In this document: piece after piece, positions 18,207-64,000 of the stretch
How the letters are laid out: the number at the start of each line of letters is the position of its first letter
How positions within the stretch are numbered: position 1 is the first letter of the stretch
DNA from: an uncultured Clostridia bacterium
GTDB lineage: Bacteria; Bacillota; Clostridia; Christensenellales; UBA1242
Length of the DNA stretch: 64,000 bases
Assembly: GCA_944381205.1 (NCBI GenBank)
Contig: CALWKG010000003.1
Location: 27,573 to 91,572 of the forward strand
Reading direction: 5' to 3'
Position numbers and translations under genes: made by a program
The notes under the pieces: generated by a model
Seen by the model: the letters and a program-made list of their open reading frames with translations, nothing else
Databases searched by the model: none
Told to the model about the DNA's origin: nothing

Positions 18207-18479
18207 AGGGGATTCTTCGCTAACGCTCAGAATGACGAAAAGTACTCAGAATGACGGATAAACCTGTGGGATTCGCTAATGCTCAGAATGACATAGTGGG
18301 TTCGGGGTGACGGGAAAAGACATATTAATTGGTAGACCTATATGCTTTCGTCATTCTGAGATTCGACCCGCAACGGTGGACTCCCGAAGAATCCCCGAGA
18401 ACTTTACAATCATTTTATCTTAGTGTTTTTTTGTCATTCTAAGATGGGCAAAAATTGCTCGGCTATCGAAGAATCTCCC
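18207..18479. repeat. cluster of >=5 hairpin repeats of the 'CGTCATTCTGAG...CGAAGAATCCC' family (mixed orientation)
   Basis: Minus-orientation copies at 18207-18238, 18245-18257 (partial) and 18268-18292. A variant 'ggggtgacggg' sits at 18304-18314. Plus-orientation long-loop copies at 18347-18396 and 18431-18479. The same family recurs at 62.86-63.86 kb. Confidence 0.7.
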
Positions 18480-22106: not shown

Positions 22107-22136
22107 TTGACAAAAAATGATAATATAAAATATAAT
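22107..22136 (+). promoter_or_regulatory. sigma-A type promoter candidate for giant gene 1
   Basis: TTGACA (22107-22112), an 18-bp spacer, then TATAAT (22131-22136). This predicts a 5' UTR of roughly 60 nt before ATG 22203. Confidence 0.5.
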
Positions 22137-22202
22137 TAACTAAACTTATTGCTTGACTTGATAAAACTAACTGAAAACTCACATAATAAAAGTAGGTGTT
22201 TT

Positions 22203-45974: not shown

Positions 45975-46043
45975 ATGAAAAGACTATTTAGTGCACTGTT
46001 TGTGTTTTTAATAATGGGCTTTACATTTGTATTAGTTGGTTGT
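45975..46043 (+). other. lipoprotein signal peptide (SPase II type) of giant gene 2
   Basis: KR n-region, a hydrophobic core, and the lipobox L-V-G-C with Cys at residue 23. Confidence 0.75.
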
Positions 46044-49000
46044 AATGACAGATATGGGGGATTATCCATGTCCCTATCTTTTTCCTTTTCACCTAATGGC
46101 GAAAACGTAGAAGTCCTAGACGACGGCACCTACCGAGTGATAACCGGCGGGGGTGTTTTTGACGCAAAAAGGGACGGCAGTTATGTGATTTATATTGGGG
46201 AAGAAAATGCGAGAATTCCGCTAGACATTGTATATCACAACGCGCCAGACGACTTTAACTATGACGTAAATTTTTCCTATAATTCGGAGGCTTTTACGTG
46301 CGACAAATCGGACAAAAATTTTATAACAAACGGGATACAGGTGACCGTGGTTGCGTCTAGCATAGGCAAGGGCAACCTAACGGTAATAAATTCCGAAGCG
46401 AACATAAAATCCAGCATTTACATTGAAGTTGTTAAAATTGCAAACGAAATTAGTTTTAAAAATAGCAGTCTTGGAATTTCGGTTGAAGAAAGGTCAATCA
46501 TAAATTTTGCAAACGAATTAACGGGCATACCGCAGGGGCAAAATTTTGAGATAAGTTTTGGCACGGGCAGTGTGGAAAATTTTAGCCCAATGACCTATGA
46601 AGAACTTATGACAAAGGGCTTTAACTACAACATAAACACTAAGTCGCTATCGCTTGCCAGAACTACCAATATCGAATTAGACAGTTTTTTGGTTAAGGCT
46701 ACTTACACAAGTCCACTGGGGGAAGAACTTGTTGCCTACGCGACGATTGACGTTTTGCCCGCGCTAAGTGGTTTTGAAATTTATTTGGGTAGCGACATAG
46801 ACTCTGTTTTGCCAGAAAACAGGGTGGATTTAAACTCGGCATTAGAGTTTGTTTATAACAATGTAGACGGCAGGCTTAACTATAAAGACTTTATTTTTAA
46901 AATTAATTCCAATGGCGAAAAGGTTACTTTTGGGGCGATTTATGAAGAAGGGCTTTATCCTTTTAAGGTGGGCGAAAATATACTAACCCCACAGCCTTTG
47001 TTTAACAAAAGCCCGTACGTTTATGTAAACCAAAACGGGCAAGTGGTTGACGACTACTCGCAGGCGACCACCACTTATGGATTTTTTAGGCTAGAAGCGA
47101 TAAAAAGTACAGAAGACCCAAAATACACTAACAGCATTTATACCATTAACTTTACTTGTGATTATGCCGATTACGAGATAACAAATTACCCACTAGTTTT
47201 AAATGTAGATAGCACTATTTTTAGTTTGGTAGAAACTTTTGAGATAAACGGCGACAGTGTTGATAGCACCTTTTTTGAAAAGGGCGAACTGGCGGGCTCA
47301 ATAGACAGCATTATTGACAAGTTTTACCAAAACAAACTATACCTTAACACGTCAGGTGACATTAGCGGGGAGAGTTTTGAGATTTCGGTAGCAAGCCCAA
47401 GCAATATTAACGAGCAAAACTCAAAGTTTTACGTAGAATTTTACGACGACAACTACAATTTGATAGCCGACCCGAGTTATTATTTGACAATTAGTTACGA
47501 ATACGCGGGCAATAGTTACAATTACGTTAGTTCGGACAATCAACTATTTAGCAAGGACACGACCTTTTACATTAAGCCAAAGAGAGAAACCACTAGCGCA
47601 AACGACCAGTTTTTTATGATTATCCGTGCCGAAAAGCCAACAGATATGCCTGCGGTGGCGGGACTTCACTTTGTGGTGGTGGAAGGCATTAGCGAGATTG
47701 AAAGTTACGACTACACAAACTACACCTATTCGGTAAATGAAGAAACAGGCGAGTACATACTGGACGAGTTTGGCAACAAGATAATTGTAAATAGCGGTAG
47801 CGAAGGGGTTTTGTTTACCGAAAGCACGTCAAGTAGCAAGACTATGGTTGGGGTAGAAACCATAAACGTCGACCTAAACGTCAAGCAAGACATTTTTATT
47901 AGCCTTAATGCCGACTATGAAGAATATTCTAACGTAAGTATCCAGTCTTCCGACCCTAGCATTTTGATAATTAAGGAAATTAACGGCGGGGATATAACCG
48001 CTCAGGCTTTAAAAAAGGGTAGCGCCAAAATAATAGTTAGAGTGGAAAGTTTGTCTATGGTATACGAGATAGACATCAATGTTTTTAGCCCAATAACATC
48101 TTTTTACACAACCCTAAACACTTACGACAATGGAGTGGGCGAATACGAAATTGACGACGACAAAATTAGTACCAAAAGCGCAACCGTCGAAGCCAAGACC
48201 ACGTTTAGTGTTTTAATCTCGACTCGCCCTTTGGAAGAAAAAGTCTATGATTTGATAACTAGGCTTTATGTCAAGGTAGCCGAAAATGACTACCAACTAG
48301 TTGGCGAATACCTGGGGGCAGGTGACGGGGTTATACAAGACGGATATATAACCTACAATGCAATAAATCACAGTTTTACCTTTTATAGCGACGACGCGGA
48401 AGGTAGAGAATACATAGTTGTGTACGAAATTCACAACTTAGACGGGGCTATTTTAAGAAAGCAGATAACCCTTAAATGTTTTGTTCCAATTAGGGATATT
48501 ATGATAGAAACTACCACCACTCAAATTTACGAGCCGGACTCCATTTATTACGGCGACAAGGTTTTGAGTGCACAAGATTTGTCCCTTAGGCAAGACGACC
48601 CTAGCATATTCGGGCTAAGGGTTAACGTCAACCACGTAAGCGAAAGAATTCCGACCTTTACCTTTGAAGATTACGGGGTTATCGAGATTGAGTTTAACGG
48701 AAATATTTACAATAGGTATAGTGTAAAAAATGGGGTTTTGGTGGAAGAATACATTAGCACTTTAAGCCCAATTTCTGCACTATCTAATATAATGACTAAC
48801 GGCTATTACTGGTTTAGGCTAAACGAAGACAGAAAACTATCAAATGACAGTCTTTTAATAAATGCCTATGTTAGAGAGTTTAGTAAAAACAACTTTGAAG
48901 ACAACAAAAAGATTGAAATCATACCCGTAAGCGCGGTAAAGTCCATCGTGTCAAATGACGGCACGGACATTAATTTTAGGCAGGGTATTGACAACTCGTT

Positions 49001-52000
49001 TAGCGCAAATTTGCAGGTCTTTGACGGCGACATTTACAATAGCGAGTTGCTGTACATACCAGTAGTGGTGCTAGAAGATAAATTTGCAGTCGTTCAAAAT
49101 GGCGGTCTTTTTACAATAAGCATTAACAAAACCTACGAAAATATGTTCAGGCTAGACTTTGGATTAAATCACAAGTTTGGCGGTTACGGGGCGGTGGTTA
49201 TTATTCCGCAAGACAAGATAAACACTTTAAGCGATTATACCACTTGGAACAGTTACACCTACACACAAGTGACCGTTAACGAAGATAGTTTTGTTCAAGG
49301 GCTATATTACATTATGCAGGGGGAAGAATATTTCCTTGCTAGCGAATATTTCGAAACCCAAACCTACTACATAAAGGGCATTGATTTATCCCAAGTGCTG
49401 TCTATTTGGCAGGGGGCTTTGGTGCTAAACATAAGTGTTTCCGACGGGGAAGGGATACCTTACCACATCTCTACCTATGAAGAACTAGTCGAGATAGGTA
49501 GCAGTGCGGAGTCGGCTTCCAAAAACTACGTCCTAACGCGTGATATAGAAATTCCAAGCAGTTACAGGTGGCAAGCCATACAAAATTACTACGTGGCAAA
49601 TGTTACTAGTCAGGAAGAATTTTTGCTAGACACATATTACATTAAAGACGGCGAAGACTACGTTATTAGTGAAGAGTACGACGAAGATGCCACTTACTAC
49701 GGGCTGGGCTTTAACGGTAATTTGACCGGCAAGTACGAGATTGTCGATTACAGGACAGGGCAAACCATAACCGAATACTACTCCATTACAAACGTAAGGT
49801 ACGAAGGCGGGTATAATTCTTCCCTAATGGGAATATTCACAAAACTTGGTGTAGACGGGGTCATAAGCGATTTAAAGGTTGAATATAGTTATTTCCAACC
49901 TAGCACTACCACTGCTGGTTACTACGGCGGTATCGTTGGAGAAAACAGGGGAAATATCCAAAACGCAAGTGTTAGGTTTAGCGATTACAGGCTAACCATA
50001 ACCAAGCCAAACGACAACGAATTTAAGGTCGTTGTGGGCGGAATTGCAGGGGTAAACTACGGAACCATTGAAAACAGCAGGCTACTAGACGAGTCTTCCT
50101 TGCAGGGTAACCTAAGTGTTGTACTACTTAGCGAAGATATCGACGCGCTTGTTGGTGGCTTTGCGGGCGAAAACTACGGGGTAATTAGCGGTTCGTATGA
50201 TACAGACAAGCAAATTGAGTATACTTTTAACGACATTGGCTTTGACTCTGTTTTGGGGATTAGAGTGGACGGAAAGTCGGTTAATTCTCGAATAGGCGGG
50301 GTGGCGGGTCTAAACAGTGGCAAGATAAAAAACATTGCCTTGCAGGGCAAAATCGTGGCAAGCGGGCTTAACTACGTCGGCGGGATAGTTGGTTACAATG
50401 ATGTTTCGTCTAACAGAGAATATTCTATCGAGAGAAGTTACTTTGCGGGTACGGTTTCTGGCAATGACTTTGTTGGCGGGGTGGTTGGAAATTCTAGCAA
50501 TGGCAGTTACTACAACATTAGCGCCGAAAACTATGCCACAAGCACAAACAGTTCGCGAACCTTTGTCACGGGCAACAGGAACGTCGGCGGATTGATAGGT
50601 TATGCCAGCAACGTGCAGGTGCAGTTTAGTTTTGTAGTGAGTTACTTTGGTTGCGACAGCATAGAAAGTAAGTTTGTCGAGTCTTCAAGCAGTTACGACG
50701 TTATCGGGCAAGAAAACGTCGGCGGGCTTGCTGGGGTGTTTGTAAATTCGCAGGTTAGCGCAAGCGCCACCTATGTAAACGTGCGGGGAAATGACGCGGT
50801 TTCTAATTTTAGTGCGGTGACTAACTCGTCTAGTATTGAAGACGCGTTTGCCATAGGCTGTATATACGCGGTCAATGGGGTAAGCCACAACCCGCTTAGC
50901 ATTGCGCAAAATTCCTATTCCATCATAACGGACGTAAGGCAGGGGGTTACCTACACCAACGGCTACGAAGACGGGGTTATAAATATAACAATAGAAGACC
51001 CGTGGAAAGCAAGCGAAGTCGCGGACAACCCGCCATACCTTGTGTTTGAAGGCGAAGCGCTACTATCCACTAGCCAAATTGTAATCACGGCAAGTGTAAA
51101 GGATAACGACGCGCCTTACACTAACTACATTAAAGCCACAGACACGGCACTATTGCTGTTTTATGGCTATGACGAGTTTAATAGATATTCTAGTTCGCTA
51201 ATGAACCAAGTAAACACCATAGGCTTAAAGGACCTGATTGACCTTAAAGTAGAACTAGAAACTCACAAAACCACTAGATTTGACGTCAGGTCTAGCAATT
51301 TATCCGTGCTTACCATAAGCCAAAACGGAGATATTAGGGTAGTGGGTACGGGCAAAGCGATAATTACAATTTCTTCCAAATTAAATTCCAGTGTGTTTAA
51401 GCAAATAGAAGTAGTTGTAATAAACGGCATTACGGGTATGGAAGTGTACTCCAACCCGTCAATGACGCAAAACGCGGACGATTTAGATTTAACCCTTGTA
51501 AAATCTCAAAGTTTGGGGCTGTATTCGGAGATAGAATACACAAGGCAAATTGACAACCAAGAGTTGCAACTTTTAAGTAGCGAGCAGGTTGGGGTTAGGT
51601 TTAAGGTGTACGACGACGAGAGTTTGCAGGAACTTTTGCAGTCGCTGGTGGACGACGAAGAAGGTGTGTACTACGAGTTAAACGACATTTTGCGCATAGC
51701 GGGTAACACGTGGGCGCAAGACCCTAACGGCTTTTATTACGTGGACGTTGACTATAACTCTCAAATTTCAATAGTTCCGCAAATAGCCTTTGATTTACCT
51801 ATAACAATTTCCTACACTCCGTACATAAAGACGGTGTTTAATTCGGGCGAGATAGTGACCTTGCTAGATATGATAGGCGAGAGATTTTTTAGGGTCACCG
51901 CTCAAAACGGGGCTACCGATATCGTCTTAGAAAATAACATTTTATCCACAGTGGATATCAATCAGTTGGAGTACTTTACCTTTACCGTTACCGTGTATAC

Positions 52001-55000
52001 TGATTATGAAGAAGAAGACATCGACAGCAACATAAACACTATTACTGACCAAAACTTTGGCTTTAACCCGGGCAACAAGGTCATAAACAAGGACTCAAAC
52101 GGCAAAGTTGTCAGTGTGTCTAGAAGTTACACCGTTTGGTACAAAGACAAGGTAAACACAATAGATGAAGAAAAGGTATACAACCTTAACTTTTGGGCTG
52201 TAACTAACGCGAGCGAAAATTCGCTTAGTTTGACGATAGTCGTTCACGGGCAGGACGGGGTTAGCGATATAAGCGCTAGGATTTTCTCCGACGTGAAGGA
52301 AGACTTTCCGCAAAAGCCTAGCGACAGCAACACCATCTACAACGCAAGGACGGGGCTACTGGCATTTGAAGTGTACCCGTATTTTGCAAACTACTCTAAA
52401 CTAAGGGTAAGTTACAGTGGCAACATAAACTATGCCATAACCTTAACCCAACTGTACTACAACGCGGATAACACGGGGGATAAGTTCTCAATCTACACAA
52501 ACTCCGGTACGACTTTTGACGAAAACGGCAACCTTATTGTCTTAAAAACTAGCGGGCAGGACAGCGCGTCTATTAGCACTAACGGGATTTATTCGTATAG
52601 CAGAATGTATTTCTTTGGCATACTGGTGCCTAGCGGTGTGCCTGATAGGACTAGTTATGTGATAACTATTGACGTTTTGGATAGCAAAAACAACGTGATT
52701 TACTCCGAGCAAGTTCCGTTTAGCACTCTTGCTAGGTCTGACCTTAATTTGAGTTTTGACGCAAAGTTCTTGGGCGAAGACGGCTTGTACTACTTGCCGG
52801 CAAATACAAGGCAGGAATTGGTCGTAAATGCCAATACCGAATACGAGGCAATTTCCTTTGAAATTTCTTCACCAGACTACCAGTTAAGCGAGATAGAAAA
52901 GGAAATCTTTGAGCCTACTTTAAGCGATGGCGGGTATTATGTTTGGGTAATGGACTATAAAAACAACCTGTTTAGTACCGACCTTATCGGTAAAACTATC
53001 GAGATTGAAGCGGTGCTTGATGACGGCGAAACCGCAGACCCGGCAAGCATTAGTTTTGTAATAAGTTTATTCACAGTAACGGGGGTAAATGTCAATAACT
53101 TAAATCAGGGATATATGACACTAGAAAATTCGGTCACAACCCCATTAACTGTAAATGTAGAGGCAGTGTATGACGAGAGTTTGGTAAATAGTAGCCAAAA
53201 CTGGTACACCACTTGGTACAATAACTTTGGCGAAGACCAGACAAATTCGCTTTATCTAAACATTTTAAACGCGGGGTACAGCATAGAAGCCAACTTTGTA
53301 GACTACCTATCTCAACTGCAAGATAGCATTGCAAAGGCAAACTACAATAGTTCTAGCACTTCCACCACAAAGACGTCAGGGGTGTGGCTGTATGTGGATA
53401 GCCAAGGCACTTTGTCCGCACTAAGAAGCGGAAATATGTACAACAACAATGCCTTTGGGGTAGAAAATTACAGGGATTACATAGCGGTGTATGGGTACGA
53501 AACGGATAGAAATTCCAACCTAATACTAAATGTAAGGCTAACCTACTCGCACTACGATATGTCGACGTCCACAAGGGTAAAAGACAGTAGCGGTGTGCCT
53601 AGTGTAAGGGACTATAACTACGAGTTTGCACTGTATCAAAGCAACTTTACCTTTGAGCAGGAGTTTACGTTGACTTTTGTAGATAGGATAGGGCTTAATA
53701 ACCCAACACCTATATCTAGTGCTAGCGAGTTTTTGGACCTAGCGGAAGAAACCGAAGGCGATTTTAGATTAGTCAACGACATAGAACTGACAAATTACAC
53801 CCCAATTAATCTAAACGTGGATAGTTTTGACGGCAACAATTACACCATTTACATTACTAGTTTTAGCAATTCCGCCACCAACTTTGCGCTATTTGACACC
53901 ATTGATAGCGAAAGTATGGCATACAACGCAACGGTATACTACACCAGCAGGGTGGATTATTCTACCGAACTTGAAACCATTATCCCGCGTGCCTATCCTA
54001 TTGAAATTGAACTAAATCAAACCGGGTCGTACAACTTTGGTGGGCTAGCGATAACAAATAAAGGAATTATAACCAACTGCACGGTGACGGGCGGGGTGAC
54101 ATTTGATACCAATTTAAGTTTAAGTGTCACAAACGGCGGTCTTGTTACCCAAAACAGCACAAGCGGGTTTATTACAAACTCTAAGGTAACCCACTTTATT
54201 TTGACTTGCTATGGCACAACGGGCGGTTTTGTCGCACAAAATATGGGTAAAGTGGTCGCGTCGTACTTTGACAATAGTTCTATCACCAACCTATCCACCG
54301 CAAACACGGGCGGATTTGTGTACCAAAACAGCGGTGAAATCTACGAGTGCTACGCACAGGGGGCAAGAAGCACCACCGATAACGACATTCGCAACACCGG
54401 CGCGGGAATTTCTTCCGACGGGGGTAACGTGGGTGGCTTTGCGTACCAAAACACCAGCCTAATTAGTGACTGCTACTCCAACATACTAATTTCTACGTCA
54501 AATATGATGGCGGGCTTTGTGTACGTGGATAGCGAGTCCAGTGTGATTAGTAAGTGTTACTCTATAAGTTGTAAACGTTCGGGCGATAACGAAACAACCG
54601 CCTTCCCGTTTGTGGGACCTAGCGCGGAACACATCATTCCGCTAAGGGTAATAGTAAACGGTACCCTAAATAACTGCTACTATTTGACCACCGGTGGCTC
54701 GTGGGAAGAGTCTAATTTCTACTTGCCAGACAGCACTAACCCAAGGCTCACCCCTGCCAATAAAAAGGCAGAAGCCCTAGAAACCGACGATTTTGCCACT
54801 CACGACAGTTTTATCAATTACGACTTGTCGCTTGTGTACAACACCGATTACTATGAAGATAGGACACAATTTAACTACATAGACGGCTACACGTGGGTTA
54901 TTGTGGAAGGCAAACCACTACTTGTGTCTACCTTAACTAATACCATCAGCCAGCAGGACTATCAGGGCAAACAGAAAAATTATGACAGCGAAGAACTCGT

Positions 55001-58000
55001 CTGCTTTGACAAATCCAGCATTGGCGAACTGCACGCGGTGGAGCAGACAGAAGGGGTTATGGGCTCCAATCTCATTCGCACCAACTACTATGCTTTAAAG
55101 CAAAGCGGTGACTACCTTGATAGCGACATAATTTATTCTTCACTAAGGGATAACAACGCAAATCAAATCACCTACACCTTTAACCCTAAGGGCGAGTTTT
55201 TGGGGCTTAGCATTATTTGCAGTATTGTGGTAGACGAAAACGGCAAGGAAACTTACGTTTACGAAAGCGCCGAATACGGTGACGGAAAAATCTTGGATAT
55301 TAGGACTAACAGCGGTGACGTCTACTTTGACTCTGACGAAAATTTCAGGGCAAACGACACCATTGTGATTGAAAGGAACGAGCAAAACAACGAGATTTTG
55401 CGTATCACGTACAGGACTTTGCAGAGCGCGTCGTACTACTATTCTAGCAGTGTTTCGGGCATAAGCGACGTCTTAGGCACAAGGACTAACCCAAAGATTA
55501 TCTATAACGCAGAGTCGTTTAGATATTGGCTAACCGAAACCACCCTTAACAAAACCACCAACACCTTTTATAGGATTGTTAGCGATATTAATTTAGATAG
55601 CGAATATATCACGACGTCCAATTCCACTTTTAGCGGGGTTTTGCAGGGTAACTATATGTCAATAGAAAACTTGTCCTTGTCTTACTTTAATAATAGCGTC
55701 GAAGCCGGGCAAAACAGCACGTCCTTTGGGCTGTTCTCGTCCATTGCGACTAAAAAGGAGTCCACAAACGACACGGTCATTTCCAACCTTACCATTAACG
55801 TCGACCAAGTTTTGTCTAACGCGCATATGTTTGTCGGGGCTTTGGCGGGAATGATTAACGCGGACAGCACGTTGAGTTCTAAAAAGGTATTTTTAACAAA
55901 TATTTCCATTTTAACCCCAGAAGGAAGCAAATCTTTGGTAATGGGCAAAAACGCGGTAGGCGGGCTAGCGGGGTACGCGACGGGCAACGTGATTATTAAG
56001 GACATAACCGCCAGTGTTAGTGTCAATGCGTCATACGAAGCGCCTGATTCGGTCATTAACAGCACTCTTTACGCGGGGGCAAACACTAGCAACGTAAGTA
56101 GAATTTCCTACGCGGGCGGGGTAGTTGGGATATTTGACGTCAAAAAGGTCATTGACACCGCAACTCTTAGGAACTACAACGCAAGCAACATAATAGTAAA
56201 TGGCGAAAACACGTACGTTGGCAACATAGTAGGTAGCGCGTTTGGACTAGTTGGCGAAAACTGCATAATAAACTACGTCAACGCGAGTTTAACGCACTCC
56301 GAGATTTCGTTTATCAAAGCCACCAGTTACGCGGGCGGTTTGGTGGGCGAAAACCGCGGGACGATAATAAGTTCTTCGGCAAGCCAGTACGACGAGCAGG
56401 CAAACGAGCAGAACCACGGCATTGGCGACTCGCCTTATGACCAGTACGACCTGTTTTTCAGCGGGCTTGGGGGAGAAGTGCTTGCCATCGGCGGTTTGGT
56501 TGGGCTAAACAACGGCGGACTTGTGACAAATAGCATTTCAAAGGTAAATGTTACCAACAAAAAGGCGACCATCGCGGGCGGTGCCGTGGGTAGAATGTTA
56601 GAAGGCGCGCTAGAAAACGTAATTGCCAGCGGTGCGGTTTTAGGAAACAGGATTATGGGCGGTCTTGTCGGTAGCCTAAACGATATCGACTTAATGGCGA
56701 TAGAAGGCGAATACAACGCAGACGGTTTAATACCTTTTGATAGGCAAAAGTACATCGACTTTTACGGTAGTTTTGTCGCGGGCGAAGACACAAAGGTGAT
56801 AATCTCTAACTGCGTGGCGGGCAACAACTGGCTAGTTAAAGACTACTCCTATTACTTGTCTAGGATTAACAACGGTAACGCGCTCTTGGCTGGGTTTATC
56901 GGGGTAATATCCTACTACAATACGGTAAGTGCCATAAACGATTTGATTTTTGAAACAATCAGTTTTACAAAACCTAGTTTTTATGCCAATACCTTGTTTA
57001 CCACAGTCAATAGTCAAAACCCGGCTAGGATTTTGCAAAGCACCTATCTTTCCTACGAGTTGGACTCTGTGGAAGTAAACACCAACAGTCCAAATGTCCT
57101 AGTGGACGGTAACGGCGAGCAGGTGGTTTACCCGTATTCAACTAACGAATTCTACTACGAGTCGGCACAAAGCAAGGTAAACTACACGGTAATTAGCATT
57201 AACAACGAGTTATCCGGGGCAGGTTCGCCAAATGACGTCTATGCCAAAGAGTTTTACCAAATACGTCAGACCACCCCGTCAGAACTCATTAACTCGGAGT
57301 TTTTCTACACCCTAATTGACTATGACGAAGACGGTAATTGGGGTACTCCGTATAACCAACGCAGTTTCGACTGGTACCAAGATAGATTTGGCTACATTTA
57401 TTACCTAAACGAAAACAATTCCTACACCTTGGTAAATAGCGAGCAGGAGTTTATTGCTCTCGAAAAACTAAGCGACGGCAGTTTTAGGGAGTTTTACTAC
57501 ATACAAAGCCCGATTTTGACCGAGTTTAGTTATACGGAAGAATACCTAAGCACCGACGATAGCATATTTGTCTACGGCAACAACTTGTCTAGCAGTTCTA
57601 GGGTAAACGCGTATACGTTTGAGTCCATAGACGACTTAAAGGAGCAAACATACATCTCAATCAACGGCATACAAATACCTATTAATCTTCTCGATAGCGA
57701 AAACACCATAAGCGAAGAAATTTTCCTAGACGAACAGCACGAGCAGTTTAGCGAAGGCACCTACGAGTACAAAAACTTTAACCTTCCGCTAATAAACGGT
57801 GGGGAAATCACGTCGGTTAAAATTTACGTCAAATCCTACGTTCAGGCGGATAACATCAGGGCTTATGTCGAAAGGGTTCAGGTGGTTTACGAGTACAAAA
57901 ACGTCGGGTATAACACCCTTGATAACGAAAACGTCTTTGTGTCGCTACAATCCACTATTAACAATGCCCAAACTTTCTACGACCTAAAAATCAGTTCCAA

Positions 58001-61000
58001 AAAGGTGATATTTAGTTCGTTTAAAAACGGTTATTGGCAAATGGACGACAATTTCTTGTCCTACTCCCTAGACGACGTCAGCAGGTATCCGGTTAATTTG
58101 GAGTTTGCCGAAAAGTACGTGTGGAGCGATTTTAGGTCAACCAACGTTTCTACCACCATCTATACGGCAGAAGATTTAGCCGGCTTTGCCTATATGGTAA
58201 ACAGCGGGTATGATAGTTACGAAGGCAAGACCGTAACCCTTTCTAGCGACATTGATTTAAGCGGAAAGTATTGGCTTCCAATAGGTAGCGAAAAGTATCC
58301 ATTTAAAGGCACTTTTGACGGGCAGGGGTACAGCATTAAGTACGTGTCGGTAAACGAAAATTCGCTTAAAGATAGCAACAATTTGCCAAAGTACGCGGGG
58401 CTGTTTGGCTACACGGACGGGGCGACAATTTTCGACATAAATATCCTAGGCGGTGAAGTTTGTGGCGAGTACGCAGGCGGGCTGGTTGCCAAGGCAAACA
58501 ACACCACTATCTATAACGTTCAGTCTAGAAACAATGCCGTGGGGCAAGTTTCCGCGGGCGGAATAGTGGGCGAAATGCTTGGCGGTAGCATATACAACAC
58601 CCAAAATTATGCCAGGGTGGAAAGTAATTCCAACTCGACAAATTTAGTCTACGTGGGCGGAATAGTCGGCAATGCCACAGACACCGCTATGGGTGGAACA
58701 AGCGGGGATAGGGTCTTAACCAACACCAACTACGGTGAGATTTATGCTACAAATAACTCCACTAACTACATTTCAAACACTTTAATAGAACTATTCGTAG
58801 GCGGGATAGCAGGGCAGGTTAATAACGTGACCTTAATTGATAATTCCACCAACGAAGGCTCAATCACCGTCACCACTAATTCGGATAAAACTCACATAGG
58901 CGGGGTGGTCGGAAGTGTGGTTATCAACGATAAAACCCTAGTATTATCCAAAATTCAAAACAATGCAGATATTTTGGTAAATTATGTAAATAACTTTTCC
59001 GATGCCGACATTGGCGAAAGTGCAAACTACGACGATTACGCAGTAATGGACGTGGGCGGAGTGCTTGGGGTTAGCAACATAAACGGGACTTTTGTCAATA
59101 ACGAAGGCAACTTGACGGTCAACACCACCAGTTCTAACGACGCAAAAATTTCCGTCGGTGGCATAGTGGGTAGGATAGACGTGGACGGTGCTGGCGGGGT
59201 AGACCTACGCAATTCGTACAACATTGGGGATATAGAGTCGTTTTCTACCAACTCGTCTGTGTTTGGCATAGGCGGACTGGTGGGGACAAGCGATTTGAGT
59301 TACTACGAAAACAACAATTCGGACGAAGCAAACGAAAAGACCAAAGACAAGATAAGCATTTACGACAGTTACAACGCGGGCGACGTCTTGTCTAGCAACA
59401 ACTGTGCCACCTTTATTGGCGGAATACTCGGGTATGCCTACGGTAGCAACGTGGTGTCAAACAGGGTGTTAATTCAAAGGACATTAAACGTGGGCGGGGT
59501 TAGCATTTACAACATTATGCGTACCCAAAACGCACTCGGCGCTATCGTGGGGATAGACGAACACATTTATACCACTAACCCTATGGCAAACACCACCGTT
59601 CAGGATATAGAAGATTACATTCCGCAGGGACTATATAATTTCTACCTAAGGGGAAGTGCGTACGCGTCGGGCGAAATGTACACCGCATTTAGCCAGTACG
59701 AGCCGTCTACGTCCTATTACACCGCGGTAGACGATATTCCAACCTTTGCGGTTGCCAAAATTTCGGATAGTTTAAAAGACGAAACTAACTATCAAATAGA
59801 AGTTGTAATTTCCGACATTACCTACACCTACGATACTTGGGACTTTGATAATACTTGGGAGCAGGAGTACGACACTTGGTACCCAACCCTAAAAAACAAC
59901 CTTGTTACTGCTTTTTGGGTAGAAAAACAGCAGGAAGTTCAAAGCACAGGGGTGAGTTATTCGGTAAATTCGGCAGAAGAACTAGCCTATGTCGGCAACT
60001 TGATTAATACCGGAAAGATTGAAAGCGAAGGTATCGTCATTAACCTAAACAGTTTTATTGACCTGTCTAACAGATTTTGGACCCCTATCGGCAACGACGA
60101 CTTTCCGTTTAAAGGTACCTTTAACGGCAATAGTTACGAGATTAAAAATTTGACGGTAGAAGGCTCTGTTTTAAGCGACAACACCTACGGCGGTCTGTTC
60201 GGGGTGGTAGAAGGCGCTACAATCACCAACCTTGGCTTTAATGCCCCTGTGGTTCAAAATGTCACAAATGCGGGCAGTGTCAGTGCTTTGGCAAAAAATT
60301 CCAATATCTCGTATATCTACGTCGAAAACGGCGACAGCGAGTCCAGTGTGATAGAAGGCATATCCCTTGCAGGCGGGATTGTGGGCGAGTTGGTCGACAG
60401 CAACGACAAATCATCTAGTGACAGGCGCGGGCTGTACTTTGCCTACAACAACACCCGAGTAAGCGCCGACACAGAAATCACCGGGCTATCGTCAGTGGGT
60501 GGCTTGGTGGGCAGTTTAAGCAGTTCCATTATCGGCAACGCGTACAATGGCGAAAGCGGTATCGTGGTCGTCAGGGACGCGAGTGTCAGCACGGGTAGTA
60601 TCGTGGTGGGCGAAGCGGATATTTCTAGCCAACTCATTAACGTGTTTAACTTGTCACCGCTTATGCAAACCATAGACCTAAGCGACATCGAGATTACCGA
60701 AAAGCAACTATACACCATAACCCTTAGCGAAGACAACCGCGTACTTGTAGTTAATACAGGTTACGAGCCAACCTTTGATAACCTTGTTAGCGACGACGAC
60801 TTGGGGCAAACGGTGGACGTTTTTACCAAGGAATACAGCCTAAATAGTGTAGAACTAATTGACTACCCAACCATAAGGGGTCTTGGCAGAGAGTGGAAGA
60901 ATACCGAAAGTGACAATTTGGTTTCCTACACCATATCTAGCGACTTTGGCGAAAAGGGTAGTATAGTAGATTACATTCAGTCAATCACGGTGGATAGTTC

Positions 61001-62726
61001 TTTAAGTGACGAAATCAATGCTTTAAGGATAAACCCAACACTGCTTAGTTTCGCAAACGACAACAACATAAAGGTTAATAAGGTCTACCTAATTTCTTCC
61101 GCGCAGGAGTTGGTTTTCCTAGCCAACAACGTAAACAACGGCTCACTGCTAACCACTAATACCGAGTTCATTTTGACCAGCGACATCGACCTAACAGGCA
61201 GTTATTGGACTCCTATTGGGCTGTCTTCGGTGTATCCGTTTATGGGTGTGTTTAACTTTAACGGTCACGTGATTAGCGGGCTTACCATAGACAATTCTTC
61301 CTACACCTACGCGGGACTGTTTGGCTATACCAAAAACGCATATATCATTAACGGCTACCTTCAAAACGCGTTTATCAAAATCAACAACCAAGGCATTAAT
61401 TCCGAGGTCTATGCGGGCGCTCTTGTGGGGCTAGGGGATAACACCACCATCAAAAACATAAGTGTCAGCGCGACCATTTCGGCTTATTCCAATTTCGCCA
61501 GTTACATTGGCGGGGTGGCGGGCTATCTAACCGGTAGCAGTTACAGTGTGCAAAACGTCAAATCTTTCAAAGGCGCTAAGTCGGTAGATTTGGGAAATTT
61601 TGTAAATAACGTCGTCGAACTCGAAGACAATACCGAGGTTAAGTCCGACAACTTGTATTTGGCGGGATTTAGCGACAAGGGCAGTGTCTACGCGGGCGGA
61701 ATTGCGGGCTACGTCGTGGGACCTGACAGGCAGGAAGACGATTTTAGTGTCATAACGTACGCACAAAGCGGTATCAACATTACCGCGGTTTCTCGCTCGG
61801 CTTCGGCAAACGTCTACGCGGGCGGAATTGCGGGCTACGGGGCAGAGTTTTTAACCGTTGATACGTCGTCTAGCACTAGCATAATAAAGACCTATTCGGC
61901 AAAATTCGACGTCGCGGGCGGGATAGTCGGCTACAACAACAATGGTGTGGTTTCCAACTCGCAGTTTGACGGGTACTTAGAAACAAGGCAGTCGTCGGGC
62001 AGAGTTTTCGACGCACCGCAAAACATTAGGTCGTACGTGGGCGGAATAGTCGGCAGTGCTCGTGGCGGGGTGATTTCCAACTGCATTAACAGTGGCTCCA
62101 CCCTTGCCAGCAACGTCAGCGAAGACGTTTCAATAGGCGCCATAATAGGCTATGCCATCGATAAGGAGTACACCGGCGACTCGCTCAGCATTTACTATAC
62201 AGGCAATAACGGCTTTGAGGACGCGATAGGTATTTACGTCTACGAAGTTCTCACCCAGCCTAGCGACATTCAGGATTTAATAAACGGAGTGTACACTAAC
62301 GACACAAGGCTAATTTCGGCAGAAGGCAGTCCATTTAGGGATAACCCTAGTTGGAAAGTCAACGGTTCCGAAGCAATCGTCCTATCAAATAAGGTGTTTT
62401 TAATGGGCGCGAATATGGCTTCGTTTAGGGTCAGTTACGGCGGGGAAACAAAGCCACTGCTCGGGCAGGAAGGTGTGGATAGCCAGCCGGGGCTTTTGGT
62501 AGACTTAGAAAACTTGGGCGACGTCGATATCTATAACATAGCCACGTCGTCTAGCGAGTCAAAAATAGCGGTAAGCCTATTAGTGCAGGGAGTAAACGGG
62601 CTAGAATACTACTATATCGAACAAACCCTAAGTGACTCCGCCGACGAAACCTTCAAACTCTCCACCGTCATAGGCTCCACCCTAAAATCCCAACTCGTCA
62701 CTTGCTTCATCTCTTATCTAGAATAG
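45975..62726 (+). CDS. giant surface lipoprotein (5,583 aa), paralogue of the upstream gene, with Ig-like domains and GLUG-motif beta-helix modules
   Basis: A 16.7-kb frame with no stop. It opens 'MKRLFSALFVFLIMGFTFVLVGC' (lipobox LVGC) with RBS 'ggga' 4 nt upstream. Big_2-like 'ITAQALKKGSAKIIVRVESL' and 'SVLTISQNGDIRVVGTGKAIITISS'. Canonical GLUG module 'IYTAEDLAGFAYMVNSGYDSYEGKTVTLSSDIDLSGKYWLPIGSEKYPFKGTFDGQGYSI...YAGGLVA...SAGGIVGEMLGGSIYN'. Confidence 0.9.
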   Translation: MKRLFSALFVFLIMGFTFVLVGCNDRYGGLSMSLSFSFSPNGENVEVLDDGTYRVITGGGVFDAKRDGSYVIYIGEENARIPLDIVYHNAPDDFNYDVNFSYNSEAFTCDKSDKNFITNGIQVTVVASSIGKGNLTVINSEANIKSSIYIEVVKIANEISFKNSSLGISVEERSIINFANELTGIPQGQNFEISFGTGSVENFSPMTYEELMTKGFNYNINTKSLSLARTTNIELDSFLVKATYTSPLGEELVAYATIDVLPALSGFEIYLGSDIDSVLPENRVDLNSALEFVYNNVDGRLNYKDFIFKINSNGEKVTFGAIYEEGLYPFKVGENILTPQPLFNKSPYVYVNQNGQVVDDYSQATTTYGFFRLEAIKSTEDPKYTNSIYTINFTCDYADYEITNYPLVLNVDSTIFSLVETFEINGDSVDSTFFEKGELAGSIDSIIDKFYQNKLYLNTSGDISGESFEISVASPSNINEQNSKFYVEFYDDNYNLIADPSYYLTISYEYAGNSYNYVSSDNQLFSKDTTFYIKPKRETTSANDQFFMIIRAEKPTDMPAVAGLHFVVVEGISEIESYDYTNYTYSVNEETGEYILDEFGNKIIVNSGSEGVLFTESTSSSKTMVGVETINVDLNVKQDIFISLNADYEEYSNVSIQSSDPSILIIKEINGGDITAQALKKGSAKIIVRVESLSMVYEIDINVFSPITSFYTTLNTYDNGVGEYEIDDDKISTKSATVEAKTTFSVLISTRPLEEKVYDLITRLYVKVAENDYQLVGEYLGAGDGVIQDGYITYNAINHSFTFYSDDAEGREYIVVYEIHNLDGAILRKQITLKCFVPIRDIMIETTTTQIYEPDSIYYGDKVLSAQDLSLRQDDPSIFGLRVNVNHVSERIPTFTFEDYGVIEIEFNGNIYNRYSVKNGVLVEEYISTLSPISALSNIMTNGYYWFRLNEDRKLSNDSLLINAYVREFSKNNFEDNKKIEIIPVSAVKSIVSNDGTDINFRQGIDNSFSANLQVFDGDIYNSELLYIPVVVLEDKFAVVQNGGLFTISINKTYENMFRLDFGLNHKFGGYGAVVIIPQDKINTLSDYTTWNSYTYTQVTVNEDSFVQGLYYIMQGEEYFLASEYFETQTYYIKGIDLSQVLSIWQGALVLNISVSDGEGIPYHISTYEELVEIGSSAESASKNYVLTRDIEIPSSYRWQAIQNYYVANVTSQEEFLLDTYYIKDGEDYVISEEYDEDATYYGLGFNGNLTGKYEIVDYRTGQTITEYYSITNVRYEGGYNSSLMGIFTKLGVDGVISDLKVEYSYFQPSTTTAGYYGGIVGENRGNIQNASVRFSDYRLTITKPNDNEFKVVVGGIAGVNYGTIENSRLLDESSLQGNLSVVLLSEDIDALVGGFAGENYGVISGSYDTDKQIEYTFNDIGFDSVLGIRVDGKSVNSRIGGVAGLNSGKIKNIALQGKIVASGLNYVGGIVGYNDVSSNREYSIERSYFAGTVSGNDFVGGVVGNSSNGSYYNISAENYATSTNSSRTFVTGNRNVGGLIGYASNVQVQFSFVVSYFGCDSIESKFVESSSSYDVIGQENVGGLAGVFVNSQVSASATYVNVRGNDAVSNFSAVTNSSSIEDAFAIGCIYAVNGVSHNPLSIAQNSYSIITDVRQGVTYTNGYEDGVINITIEDPWKASEVADNPPYLVFEGEALLSTSQIVITASVKDNDAPYTNYIKATDTALLLFYGYDEFNRYSSSLMNQVNTIGLKDLIDLKVELETHKTTRFDVRSSNLSVLTISQNGDIRVVGTGKAIITISSKLNSSVFKQIEVVVINGITGMEVYSNPSMTQNADDLDLTLVKSQSLGLYSEIEYTRQIDNQELQLLSSEQVGVRFKVYDDESLQELLQSLVDDEEGVYYELNDILRIAGNTWAQDPNGFYYVDVDYNSQISIVPQIAFDLPITISYTPYIKTVFNSGEIVTLLDMIGERFFRVTAQNGATDIVLENNILSTVDINQLEYFTFTVTVYTDYEEEDIDSNINTITDQNFGFNPGNKVINKDSNGKVVSVSRSYTVWYKDKVNTIDEEKVYNLNFWAVTNASENSLSLTIVVHGQDGVSDISARIFSDVKEDFPQKPSDSNTIYNARTGLLAFEVYPYFANYSKLRVSYSGNINYAITLTQLYYNADNTGDKFSIYTNSGTTFDENGNLIVLKTSGQDSASISTNGIYSYSRMYFFGILVPSGVPDRTSYVITIDVLDSKNNVIYSEQVPFSTLARSDLNLSFDAKFLGEDGLYYLPANTRQELVVNANTEYEAISFEISSPDYQLSEIEKEIFEPTLSDGGYYVWVMDYKNNLFSTDLIGKTIEIEAVLDDGETADPASISFVISLFTVTGVNVNNLNQGYMTLENSVTTPLTVNVEAVYDESLVNSSQNWYTTWYNNFGEDQTNSLYLNILNAGYSIEANFVDYLSQLQDSIAKANYNSSSTSTTKTSGVWLYVDSQGTLSALRSGNMYNNNAFGVENYRDYIAVYGYETDRNSNLILNVRLTYSHYDMSTSTRVKDSSGVPSVRDYNYEFALYQSNFTFEQEFTLTFVDRIGLNNPTPISSASEFLDLAEETEGDFRLVNDIELTNYTPINLNVDSFDGNNYTIYITSFSNSATNFALFDTIDSESMAYNATVYYTSRVDYSTELETIIPRAYPIEIELNQTGSYNFGGLAITNKGIITNCTVTGGVTFDTNLSLSVTNGGLVTQNSTSGFITNSKVTHFILTCYGTTGGFVAQNMGKVVASYFDNSSITNLSTANTGGFVYQNSGEIYECYAQGARSTTDNDIRNTGAGISSDGGNVGGFAYQNTSLISDCYSNILISTSNMMAGFVYVDSESSVISKCYSISCKRSGDNETTAFPFVGPSAEHIIPLRVIVNGTLNNCYYLTTGGSWEESNFYLPDSTNPRLTPANKKAEALETDDFATHDSFINYDLSLVYNTDYYEDRTQFNYIDGYTWVIVEGKPLLVSTLTNTISQQDYQGKQKNYDSEELVCFDKSSIGELHAVEQTEGVMGSNLIRTNYYALKQSGDYLDSDIIYSSLRDNNANQITYTFNPKGEFLGLSIICSIVVDENGKETYVYESAEYGDGKILDIRTNSGDVYFDSDENFRANDTIVIERNEQNNEILRITYRTLQSASYYYSSSVSGISDVLGTRTNPKIIYNAESFRYWLTETTLNKTTNTFYRIVSDINLDSEYITTSNSTFSGVLQGNYMSIENLSLSYFNNSVEAGQNSTSFGLFSSIATKKESTNDTVISNLTINVDQVLSNAHMFVGALAGMINADSTLSSKKVFLTNISILTPEGSKSLVMGKNAVGGLAGYATGNVIIKDITASVSVNASYEAPDSVINSTLYAGANTSNVSRISYAGGVVGIFDVKKVIDTATLRNYNASNIIVNGENTYVGNIVGSAFGLVGENCIINYVNASLTHSEISFIKATSYAGGLVGENRGTIISSSASQYDEQANEQNHGIGDSPYDQYDLFFSGLGGEVLAIGGLVGLNNGGLVTNSISKVNVTNKKATIAGGAVGRMLEGALENVIASGAVLGNRIMGGLVGSLNDIDLMAIEGEYNADGLIPFDRQKYIDFYGSFVAGEDTKVIISNCVAGNNWLVKDYSYYLSRINNGNALLAGFIGVISYYNTVSAINDLIFETISFTKPSFYANTLFTTVNSQNPARILQSTYLSYELDSVEVNTNSPNVLVDGNGEQVVYPYSTNEFYYESAQSKVNYTVISINNELSGAGSPNDVYAKEFYQIRQTTPSELINSEFFYTLIDYDEDGNWGTPYNQRSFDWYQDRFGYIYYLNENNSYTLVNSEQEFIALEKLSDGSFREFYYIQSPILTEFSYTEEYLSTDDSIFVYGNNLSSSSRVNAYTFESIDDLKEQTYISINGIQIPINLLDSENTISEEIFLDEQHEQFSEGTYEYKNFNLPLINGGEITSVKIYVKSYVQADNIRAYVERVQVVYEYKNVGYNTLDNENVFVSLQSTINNAQTFYDLKISSKKVIFSSFKNGYWQMDDNFLSYSLDDVSRYPVNLEFAEKYVWSDFRSTNVSTTIYTAEDLAGFAYMVNSGYDSYEGKTVTLSSDIDLSGKYWLPIGSEKYPFKGTFDGQGYSIKYVSVNENSLKDSNNLPKYAGLFGYTDGATIFDINILGGEVCGEYAGGLVAKANNTTIYNVQSRNNAVGQVSAGGIVGEMLGGSIYNTQNYARVESNSNSTNLVYVGGIVGNATDTAMGGTSGDRVLTNTNYGEIYATNNSTNYISNTLIELFVGGIAGQVNNVTLIDNSTNEGSITVTTNSDKTHIGGVVGSVVINDKTLVLSKIQNNADILVNYVNNFSDADIGESANYDDYAVMDVGGVLGVSNINGTFVNNEGNLTVNTTSSNDAKISVGGIVGRIDVDGAGGVDLRNSYNIGDIESFSTNSSVFGIGGLVGTSDLSYYENNNSDEANEKTKDKISIYDSYNAGDVLSSNNCATFIGGILGYAYGSNVVSNRVLIQRTLNVGGVSIYNIMRTQNALGAIVGIDEHIYTTNPMANTTVQDIEDYIPQGLYNFYLRGSAYASGEMYTAFSQYEPSTSYYTAVDDIPTFAVAKISDSLKDETNYQIEVVISDITYTYDTWDFDNTWEQEYDTWYPTLKNNLVTAFWVEKQQEVQSTGVSYSVNSAEELAYVGNLINTGKIESEGIVINLNSFIDLSNRFWTPIGNDDFPFKGTFNGNSYEIKNLTVEGSVLSDNTYGGLFGVVEGATITNLGFNAPVVQNVTNAGSVSALAKNSNISYIYVENGDSESSVIEGISLAGGIVGELVDSNDKSSSDRRGLYFAYNNTRVSADTEITGLSSVGGLVGSLSSSIIGNAYNGESGIVVVRDASVSTGSIVVGEADISSQLINVFNLSPLMQTIDLSDIEITEKQLYTITLSEDNRVLVVNTGYEPTFDNLVSDDDLGQTVDVFTKEYSLNSVELIDYPTIRGLGREWKNTESDNLVSYTISSDFGEKGSIVDYIQSITVDSSLSDEINALRINPTLLSFANDNNIKVNKVYLISSAQELVFLANNVNNGSLLTTNTEFILTSDIDLTGSYWTPIGLSSVYPFMGVFNFNGHVISGLTIDNSSYTYAGLFGYTKNAYIINGYLQNAFIKINNQGINSEVYAGALVGLGDNTTIKNISVSATISAYSNFASYIGGVAGYLTGSSYSVQNVKSFKGAKSVDLGNFVNNVVELEDNTEVKSDNLYLAGFSDKGSVYAGGIAGYVVGPDRQEDDFSVITYAQSGINITAVSRSASANVYAGGIAGYGAEFLTVDTSSSTSIIKTYSAKFDVAGGIVGYNNNGVVSNSQFDGYLETRQSSGRVFDAPQNIRSYVGGIVGSARGGVISNCINSGSTLASNVSEDVSIGAIIGYAIDKEYTGDSLSIYYTGNNGFEDAIGIYVYEVLTQPSDIQDLINGVYTNDTRLISAEGSPFRDNPSWKVNGSEAIVLSNKVFLMGANMASFRVSYGGETKPLLGQEGVDSQPGLLVDLENLGDVDIYNIATSSSESKIAVSLLVQGVNGLEYYYIEQTLSDSADETFKLSTVIGSTLKSQLVTCFISYLE

Positions 62727-62859
62727 ATATAACACCCCACCTGCTATGATAACCAAACCCTGCATTTTCAATTTTCACTGCCATCTTTTTTATCTTTTTA
62801 CCCCTATTTTTTATCCATTTTATCTAAAAAATCACCTATTTTGTCATATTGAATACATT

Positions 62860-63860
62860 CCGTCACCCTGTCCTTCTTCGTCATTCTGAGCGAAGCGAAG
62901 AATCCCATATCTCGAAGACGAACAACTTACACTATTGCGCATACCTTCGCTTATGGGACCCTTCGATTGCCCATCAAAGTAGGGAACTCTCAGGGTGACA
63001 GCGCTCGCACGTGATTGTAAGTTGCAACGCAAATATTAACTTATTTGCGCGTGCAACACGAACAATCACTACTCGCTTTTTCCCAAAAATGCAAGTCATT
63101 TTTGGGAGCCCTGTTTTCCCGTCATTCTGAGATGGGCAGTCTTGACCGGCTCCCGAAGAATCCCCCCATCTCTCTCAGCCACGACCTTTTGCTTTGTGTC
63201 TTATCTAGAATAGGGAAATCCCCGCCATTCTGTCTTTCTTCGTCATTCTGAGCGAAGCGAAGAATCCCATATCTCGTAGATGTTACCACCTTATTACCCA
63301 CCCGTACCATTCCGTCATTCTGAGATGGGCTATCAGGCTCGGCTCCCGAAGAATCCCATATATCATAGACCGATAACTTGTTTACAATATCTCTAAGTGT
63401 TTGTTTTCCGTATTTTTACGACCCACGCTCGCACGCGGTTTCTTGTCACCGCTCCCATTTTATCAAATGTGAGTTTGGTGACCTTTTTAACCGCTACTCG
63501 CTCTATCCCAAAAATCTGACGATTTTCGGGAGCCCTGTCATTCAAACCGTGCGAGCCACGGTTTTATTTACCATAAATCATACAACCACAAAAACTATCA
63601 CGAAGCAGTCACAGTTCCCAAAAGTAAACGGAAAGGAAAACAAATACCTTAGAGATATAAAGTACACTTATACTGTTTTCTCCCACCTATTATGAGATTC
63701 TTCGTAAGCCGGTCAAGTCTGCCCATCTCAGAATGACGGAGTAAGACCGGGGAATATTTCCGCCTGTCCATCATAGTATGAAACTCTCAGGGTGACGGGA
63801 AAAATGGTGGATATTTCGATTGCCCGTCTGTACTCGTCAACTCTCCGGGTAATGAGGTGT
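62860..63860. repeat. cluster of >=9 hairpin repeats of the 'CGTCA(TT/CC)CTGAG...CGAAGAATCCC' family plus other mosaic repeats; no credible CDS
   Basis: A 41-bp exact repeat 'ttcttcgtcattctgagcgaagcgaagaatcccatatctcg' occurs at 62874-62914 and 63236-63276. Long-loop copies lie at 63118-63167 (+), 63311-63357 (+) and 63694-63740 (-). The 'ctcagggtgac' variant lies at 62986-63003 (-) and 63781-63799 (-), with a degenerate copy near 63841. Composite hairpin repeats lie at 63069-63114 and 63494-63538. Confidence 0.7.
63544..63572 (+). terminator. terminator-like hairpin inside the repeat-rich right flank
   Basis: 'aaaccgtg-cgagc-cacggttt' forms a perfect 8-bp stem followed by 'tatttacc'. No ORF sits upstream, so its function is unclear. 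Confidence 0.35.
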
Positions 63861-64000
63861 CGCGGTGAAATATTCTTCCCAACTGCGTCATTGGGCTTTC
63901 TTTTTGTAGCCCGTTACTTTTTTGTAACCCGCTCCCACTTTCTAACCGCGCCTTGCGTTGCCGTTGCTCTTTTATGGCATCAAAAACCCACTTTTGTATA

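Follow-up and report, generated by a model that had tools for sequence, protein, structure and literature searches.

Neisseria genomes carry NTS, repeats of the form CGTCATTCCCGCGMAVGCGGGAATCYRG that derive from dRS3 and belong to a broader class, the Ssn-related motifs, or SRM (Chenal et al., Nat Commun 2025, PMC11893778). NTS flank ssnA, a 94-aa single-domain GIY-YIG gene (cd10448). Its product binds the NTS hairpin only as single-stranded DNA (ssDNA), cuts it a few nucleotides upstream, and is inactive on double-stranded DNA, on RNA and on the reverse strand. The three bases 5' of the palindrome (GTC) are the most important ones for cutting, and for binding it is the C immediately 3' of it. 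NTS hardly ever lie within genes, form clusters around surface-protein genes and make transforming DNA integrate less, and the same authors remarked on the architecture of NTS-ssnA-NTS, which resembles an insertion sequence (IS), and on its analogy to repetitive extragenic palindromic (REP) sequences and their RAYT proteins (PMC11893778). Here, we analyse a family of hairpin repeats in a stretch of 64,000 nucleotides from an uncultured Clostridia lineage with 38.5% GC (contig CALWKG010000003.1; hereafter, the window). These repeats are very probably SRM of a subtype that is defined by a tandem G·A mismatch and a mini-hairpin tip, and that we call GA-type.

The window repeats share with NTS the (C)GTCA 5' end, a stem foot rich in pyrimidines (ATTCY), the hairpin itself, and a C directly after the palindrome. 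In both systems, directional sites occur in multiple intergenic copies that cluster around genes, and in both a repeat-ssn-repeat architecture is found. They differ in the stem, which in NTS is continuously Watson-Crick paired, whereas the core of the GA-type is interrupted by the tandem G·A mismatch and ends in a mini-hairpin apex of the form GCGNAGC. They also differ in the host, and the window shows no ssn gene. This apex links the repeats to a second known system, the DNA mini-hairpins d(GCGNAGC) and d(GCGNNAGC) of Hirao and co-workers, a sequence class defined as extraordinarily stable (PMC13037366). Its known natural cases, i.e. the phage G4 origin, RSF1010 ssiA, the N4 promoter and the ops elements, are single sites (PMC13037366), whereas in our case it forms the tips of repeats that belong to a dispersed family. 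A third system is that of REP, with its composites BIME and REPIN, and RAYT in Enterobacteria and Pseudomonas. It resembles the GA-type in its extragenic palindromes with a 5' tetranucleotide, its inverted heterologous dimers, its cognate gene flanked by its own repeats, and its action as an ssDNA hairpin. Yet it has a Y1 transposase of the HUH family where the GA-type has a GIY-YIG nuclease, and GTAG where the GA-type has GTCA. Furthermore, REPs are lineage-specific, whereas the core sequence of the GA-type is common across phyla.

Directional hairpin repeats in the window

The repeats have the form (C)GTCA-YYCT-GA-G[apex]C-GA-AGRR-TC and lie in two clusters, at 18211-18475 and 62860-63857. 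Neither the covariance model nor a pattern search found copies in the rest of the 64 kb. The 5' end GTCAYYCTGAG, with at most one mismatch, has 12 matches in the window against 0.89 expected, and all of them are within 18226-18443 or 62880-63796. The 21-nt core ATTCTGAGCGAAGCGAAGAAT has two exact matches (at 62883 and 63245) and none in shuffled sequences. A covariance model made from 140 copies of other genomes matches the copies of the window with E values from 3e-10 to about 0.3. The subtype is built from a foot of 5 bp (A-Y-Y-C-T), on which follow a tandem G·A/A·G mismatch flanked as Y-GA-R, then a G-C pair and finally the apex, in place of which a longer insert can stand. The apex GCGAAGC occupies 62887-62893 and 63249-63255, and the segments 62874-62914 and 63236-63276 are exact duplicates with a maximal exact length of 41 bp. 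In the long forms (at 63121, 63314, 63737 on the minus strand, 18350 and 18433), GAG and CGAAG are separated by 22-24 nt. Every full copy reads (C/T)GTCA...TC and copies are absent from coding sequence. One variant on the minus strand, CGTCACCCTGAG (62957-62999), pairs ACCCT with AGGGT where the others pair ATTCT with AGAAT, which is a double compensatory change.

Most of this anatomy had been proposed in a sequence-only reading of the window, which correctly described copies in both orientations with conserved ends, the 41-bp exact repeat, the 5-bp stem with its tandem mismatch and GCGAAGC apex, the variability of this apex, and a copy with a GC-GTTA-GC loop in the left cluster. Its estimate of about 25 nt for the insert of the long forms is close to our measure. 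It also held that the open reading frames (ORFs) called in the right cluster merely translate the repeats, and indeed the peptide RYGILRFAQNDEE is the frame-3 translation of this 41-bp repeat when it is read on the opposite strand. The flank that it regarded as gene-free (62727-64000) has no credible gene: a 105-aa ORF with a TTG start (63378-63695) lacks a Pfam match. We consider it confirmed that the hairpin repeats of the window are real, directional and structurally selected.

A covarying DNA hairpin across bacterial phyla

We searched for the motif in other genomes while leaving parts of it free. A scan of IMG/VR with both stem dinucleotides free (GTCANNCTGAGCGAAGCGAAGNNTC) revealed 74 copies in 66 contigs with unrelated flanks. 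The free NN/NN pair is Watson-Crick in 73 of these 74 copies, with five types of pairs. With the apex left free, a scan of a single genome from each GTDB species revealed at least 120 loci with at least 185 copies among the matches listed, and these included Chloroflexota, Acidobacteriota, Nitrospirota, Bacteroidota, Firmicutes, Proteobacteria, Omnitrophota, Planctomycetota, Verrucomicrobiota, Melainabacteria and Patescibacteria (Saccharibacteria, Gracilibacteria and Paceibacterota). The motif is thus spread over most bacterial phyla, i.e. it is pan-bacterial.

The stem covaries in the window and across the family, in agreement with the selection on structure that the sequence-only reading had suggested. 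When the copies from viral contigs, genomes and ssn loci are pooled, 491 out of 511 distinct copies are Watson-Crick at the free stem dinucleotides. The alignment of 140 sequences has 99.3% of its cells paired, against 18-50% in slid registers, and none of 500 shuffles reached the observed covariation score. One free pair of columns is U-A in 127 sequences and C-G in 12, another is C-G in 68, U-A in 60, G-C in 6 and A-U in 4. The apex is itself a covarying hairpin, with C-GNA-G in 202 of the 247 five-nt apices, within a G...C frame (for 74 CGAAG cases among the five-nt apices, the pattern used on viral contigs allowed nothing else). There are stems in the longer apices, for instance CC-GAA-GG, GCC-GCA-GGC and CGCCATCC-GCAG-GATGGC, and some copies have a second G·A layer stacked on the first.

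Strong stem covariation could also reflect a structured RNA motif, e.g. a stabiliser in 3' untranslated regions (UTRs), a protein-binding hairpin or a fragment of a ribozyme. Tandem G·A pairs do occur in RNA, and the copies are downstream of genes and probably transcribed. Yet the search of Rfam, which the sequence-only reading had recommended, gave no RNA family: there was no match in the whole window with 4227 models at gathering thresholds, and even at E up to 10 the region 62700-64000 only showed one meaningless 12-bit match. The orientation of the copies relative to the flanking genes is unbiased (79 co-oriented, 62 opposed), and no U-tract follows the hairpin. The triloops are of the GNA type and the tetraloops of the GNYA type, and not GNRA or UNCG; among tetraloops, there are 20 GNYA against 5 GNRA, the opposite of RNA motifs. 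Finally, the RNA version of its site is not bound by the Neisseria SsnA (PMC11893778). Hence, we regard an RNA motif as highly unlikely. The evidence points to a hairpin that acts as ssDNA. The tips of the short forms are usually GCGNAGC or GCGNNAGC, the sequence class of the DNA mini-hairpins, and the G·A mismatch is found in the Y-GA-R context on both strands of the stem, a context that fits tandem sheared G·A pairs. Other structures were considered and set aside. The registers of the hammerhead (CUGANGA...GAAA) and of the kink-turn do not fit the core, when compared by eye. The ops/RfaH-UpxY non-template-strand hairpins have the GCGNAGC tip in common with our repeats, but they are single strand-specific sites in 5'-UTRs and not repeats. 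Literature searches with the DNA strings and the translated peptides returned primers only, or nothing.

The copies of the family are mostly intergenic (244, against 74 in crude ORFs) and are found more often between convergent genes (45) than between divergent ones (25). Of 71 pairs of neighbouring copies, 51 are inverted dimers that have GTCA on the outside; the spacers measure 2-90 nt. The two halves of these dimers often carry different stems, so that each half folds locally. Dimers with outer ends TGTCA...TGACA, in some of which the inverted repeat reaches about 10 nt further outward, recall miniature inverted-repeat transposable elements (MITEs), i.e. non-autonomous derivatives of IS with DDE transposases, of which the 25-nt monomer would be the terminal inverted repeat. 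But the flanks beyond GTCA are mostly unrelated, those outside most dimers are non-complementary (median of 4/12 positions), and no target-site duplications were seen. In addition, many copies are solitary monomers, there is no transposase ORF between inverted copies 0.3-3.5 kb apart, and the usual difference between the stems of the two halves favours local folding. We regard MITEs as highly unlikely.

Many of the IMG/VR contigs with GA-type copies are phage-like, and one family of capsid-like proteins is common to 16 of the 66 loci. Restriction of ssDNA, of phages or by them, is one possible role for these copies.

Association with GIY-YIG nuclease genes

We used 186 repeat-centred loci for the clustering of ORFs and for the counts of gene linkage. 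An all-against-all clustering of the ORFs of at least 100 aa around the copies only retrieved recurrent phage structural proteins. This clustering missed the gene of interest because it is shorter than 100 aa. Inspection of the ORFs between inverted copies revealed an ORF of about 95 aa with a GIY-YIG domain, a member of a family of stand-alone genes of about 90 aa. GIY-YIG ORFs occur in 4 of the 186 loci (phmmer), where copies adjoin both sides of the gene in the orientation of the gene. When viral contigs were searched with the alignment of these proteins, the only match was a locus that was already in our set.

The reciprocal analysis used 80 metagenome loci chosen by the similarity of the GIY-YIG protein alone (590 of the 600 candidate stretches were confirmed relatives). 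The covariance model has 309 matches in the 190 kb of these loci, i.e. 1.6 per kb. An independent structural pattern has 336 matches against 19 on reversed-sequence controls, and the former are concentrated within about 300 nt of the gene. With this pattern, 77 of the 80 loci have a copy at most 200 nt from the gene: upstream in 67 loci, downstream in 70, and on both sides in 60. The linked protein matches the GIY-YIG family of Pfam and is 46% identical over 89 aa to the SsnA orthologue of N. gonorrhoeae, the locus of which is flanked by canonical NTS repeats. The GA subtype is tightly linked to ssn-like genes homologous to the ssnA of Neisseria.

An example is found in a plasmid of Planktothrix agardhii (NZ_LR882964.1, 17347-20613), where a gene annotated as 'GIY-YIG nuclease family protein', with the product WP_083616022.1, is flanked by copies of GTCATTCTGAGTGAAACGAAGAATC. 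The gene and its repeats are between a type IIL MmeI restriction-modification gene and drmA of DISARM, i.e. in a defence island. Other ssn loci have their own types of sites, all of the form GTCA-stem...stem'-TC, and the site of the Spirosoma locus (GTCATCCCGAGGAACGAGGGATC) is also GA-type.

This association bears on whether the repeats are of the REP/BIME type, mobilised by RAYT, a transposase similar to those of IS200/IS605 (Y1, HUH). The resemblance is strong: our repeats, too, are short imperfect palindromes outside genes with a conserved tetranucleotide at the 5' end, their inverted dimers have differing halves, and they are enriched between convergent genes. However, the conserved 5' bases are GTCA and not GTAG, the gene that recurs beside the copies encodes a GIY-YIG nuclease, and no copy of the motif occurs in 5,426 genomes of E. 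coli, where classic REPs are found. No transposase family recurs among the ORFs of at least 100 aa in the 186 loci, which is a weak test given that RAYTs are single-copy in each genome. The REP/RAYT explanation is largely refuted, and we give it very little chance of being correct. The search for a cognate gene advised by the sequence-only reading did uncover a partner, which is an Ssn nuclease instead of a RAYT. From the three identities that this reading had offered, the REP-like DNA hairpin related to recombination is the supported one; neither the RNA motif nor the MITE is supported.

Probable assignment to the Ssn-related motifs

The assignment of the window repeats to SRM is based on several features. 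They are hairpin-forming imperfect palindromes of 20-50 nt, with covariation in both the stem foot and the apex. They have the non-palindromic flanks that orient SRM, and the GTC and the 3' C that are needed in NTS are conserved in every full window copy. They are multi-copy, intergenic and clustered, with two clusters in the window and one site about 3.2 kb to its left. At the level of the family, they are linked to a single-domain GIY-YIG (ssn) gene, the protein of which is placed by Pfam and by its identity with SsnA. Hence, the repeats are not new in kind, since they correspond to a known element (SRM/NTS) published in March 2025. What is new is the subtype with a tandem G·A mismatch, which the published search string misses, and its occurrence in an uncultured Clostridia lineage. 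We found no later paper on Ssn in our literature search.

Several observations weigh against this assignment. The published SRM string, HGTCWYN(0-2)YYVSBRHN(0-5)WNVSBRGN(0-2)RNCYNB, does match the canonical NTS used as a control, but it matches none of the 140 monomers, nothing in the 80 ssn loci and no copy of the window. This string is a search heuristic and not a biological definition. Since it misses all copies, the GA subtype is outside the published consensus, although some of the 29 SRMs curated by its authors may be GA-type. The membership of the GA-type among SRM rests on a shared architecture and on the linkage to the gene in other genomes. An ssn gene was found neither in about 70 kb of host sequence, including the 64-kb window and 3.5 kb upstream of it, nor in the loci of relatives that are syntenic with it. 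Two small ORFs of the window were examined as candidates and rejected: the 105-aa ORF of the right flank (63378-63695) is a low-complexity sequence without a Pfam match, and a 96-aa ORF (2620-2910) encodes a small membrane protein. The nearest-neighbour folding energies of the window copies, computed with DNA parameters, are no better than those of shuffles (z from -1.3 to +0.6), and the apices of the long forms of this host are conserved in sequence but lack clean stems. Nearest-neighbour models give no credit to G·A or GNA motifs. The structural support thus comes from covariation and not from the predicted energy. Finally, the biochemistry of Ssn covers SsnA and NTS of Neisseria, the biological role of SRM has been described for Neisseria only (PMC11893778), and the reading of the GA-type is made by analogy.

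SRM are directional extragenic hairpins that function as ssDNA and that small GIY-YIG nucleases with a single domain, the Ssn family (cd10448), recognise as their sites. If the analogy with the Neisseria pair holds for the GA subtype and for this Clostridia genome, a cognate Ssn would be present in the genome and cut GA-type sites. Copies may accumulate as REP and BIME do, probably via ssDNA intermediates, at places that tolerate them, past terminators and the ends of genes.

Genomic context and turnover of the clusters

Table 1. Repeat copies and half-sites of the two clusters in the window, with the right cluster given first.
Feature	Position	Strand	Remarks
Orphan 5' half-site CCGTCACCCTG	62860..62870	+	8 nt upstream of a full copy
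Short-form SRM CGTCATTCTGAGCGAAGCGAAGAATC, GCGAAGC apex	62879..62904	+	Covariance model, 47.4 bits, E 3e-10
Long-form SRM, compensated stem ACCCT/AGGGT	62957..62999	-	Covariance model, 10.6 bits
Long-form SRM, apex ATGGGCAGTCTTGACCGGCTCC	63120..63162	+	93% complementary to 63696-63739
Degenerate 5' half-site CCGCCATTCTG	63222..63232	+	Upstream of the second short form
Short-form SRM	63241..63266	+	Within the exact 41-bp duplicate; covariance model match
Long-form SRM, apex ATGGGCTATCAGGCTCGGCTCC	63313..63355	+	Pattern, repeat comparison, covariance model
Long-form SRM, inverted partner of 63120-63162	63696..63738	-	Pattern, repeat comparison, covariance model
Decayed long form, 5' arm GTCACCCTGAG intact, 3' arm degenerate	63752..63797	-	
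Probable further decayed copy, uncertain	63810..63857	-	Similar to 62957-62999
Short-form SRM, GC-GTTA-GC apex	18211..18237	-	Just past the intrinsic terminator of the MprF-like gene; 35.6 bits
Orphan 5' half-site CGTCATTCTGAG	18245..18256	-	8 nt (TACTTTTC) 5' (minus strand) of the GTCA of the 18211..18237 copy
Decayed short form, truncated 3' arm	18266..18293	-	Covariance model, 15.5 bits
Long-form SRM	18349..18393	+	Pattern, covariance model
Long-form SRM, CTAAG variant in the 5' arm	18432..18475	+	

The left cluster directly follows the intrinsic terminator of a gene encoding an MprF-like protein, and the right one begins 134 nt past the stop codon of a 5583-aa ORF. Together, they bracket four small genes and two giant adjacent ORFs with Big_2 and GLUG domains (22149-45620, 7823 aa; 45975-62726, 5583 aa). 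Both of these ORFs are conserved in relatives, the first one with a length of 7689-7903 aa. Copies are not limited to one locus because there is a third site about 3.2 kb to the left of the window, beside rmuC, with a long form nearly identical to that of 63696-63738. A short-read (Logan) contig of the host ends inside the copy of this third site (L277, 1-29; L278, ~850-900), which suggests that the repeats fragment assemblies.

The comparison of the left cluster with its equivalents in other genomes reveals rapid change. A strain with a 98% identical MprF-like protein (L188) has the cluster with a different number of units of about 41 nt, about 3 (11480-11600) against about 2.5 in the window (18207-18296), and the integrity of the units also differs. 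Two relatives with a 76% identical MprF-like protein keep the terminator and lack the cluster. Since the cluster varies at 98% and is absent at 76% identity of the MprF-like protein, it seems to have been gained recently and to have a rapid turnover.

This turnover is relevant to assess whether the copies could be decaying relics that stem from a former activity of Ssn/SRM or from horizontal transfer, and that now have neither a partner nor a function in the host. The lack of an ssn gene in the host sequence would fit this possibility, as would the truncated or degenerate copies (63752-63857, 18266-18293), the half-sites and the poorly paired apices of the long forms. But the exact 41-bp duplicate, the number of units that differs between strains with 98% identical MprF-like proteins, and the nearly identical long forms at three separate sites suggest recent copying rather than old decay. 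We regard relics as rather unlikely.

Some arrays include orphan 5' half-sites (GTCAYYCTGAG). Among 528 copies, 43 have such a half-site 8-13 nt upstream, in the same orientation, against 6 with a 3' half-site downstream. The arrangement of half-site, short spacer and full copy recurs across phyla, including the window and the Planktothrix locus. Such arrays are found in the window at 62860-62878, 63222-63240 and 18245-18256, in the Planktothrix locus (L276) at 1198-1268 and 1839-1909, and in loci L025, L062 and L197. In some cases they form two to three units in tandem, the upstream spacer included. The half-sites may be traces of the way in which copies are made or repaired.

Other repeats were observed near the clusters. 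The right flank has a second and unrelated family, with copies at 63002-63114 and 63426-63538 (424 nt apart) that each contain a hairpin, CCCAAAAAT...ATTTTTGGG, followed by AGCCCTGT. The stretch of 25 nt with which the 5583-aa ORF ends, stop codon included (TTGCTTCATCTCTTATCTAGAATAG, 62702-62726), recurs 487 nt further on, at 63189-63213, just before the second short-form copy, which suggests a segmental duplication of the gene end plus the repeat. Upstream of the 7823-aa ORF there is a 1.27-kb tract that is extremely AT-rich (20881-22149) and made of degenerate units of about 20-25 nt (...taagtaaaaa..., ...gataaaa...). The matching gap has only 336 nt and 195 nt in the two relatives with 76% identical MprF-like proteins (L190 and L191).

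Implications for the biology of Ssn and its sites

The system was already described in 2025, and our results do not change what is known of how such elements work. They do affect estimates of its extent. The GA-type is seen in bacteria of the candidate phyla radiation, Chloroflexota, Acidobacteriota, Bacteroidota, Firmicutes and phage contigs, and current searches for SRM miss it. Because the published pattern misses this subtype, current counts of SRM probably underestimate the system. They also explain a repeat whose translation yields many spurious 'hypothetical proteins' (e.g. ...ILRFAQNDE.../...VILSEAKNL...) and which interrupts metagenome assemblies. The GIY-YIG gene of the Planktothrix plasmid and GTCATTCTGAGTGAAACGAAGAATC are candidates for enzyme-site pairs of a new specificity for ssDNA tools.

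In the Clostridia host, the clusters around the two giant genes encoding surface proteins with Ig-like domains echo the clusters of NTS near the surface-protein genes of Neisseria. By analogy with NTS, they may influence the recombination of incoming or replicating ssDNA at these genes. A bolder proposal is that GA-mismatch SRM are the most widespread class of Ssn sites in bacteria and that the half-site arrays are footprints of a cut-and-copy process initiated by Ssn. We consider this quite unlikely. If true, Ssn and its SRM would be a self-propagating ssDNA element, in which a GIY-YIG nuclease takes the place of a HUH transposase.

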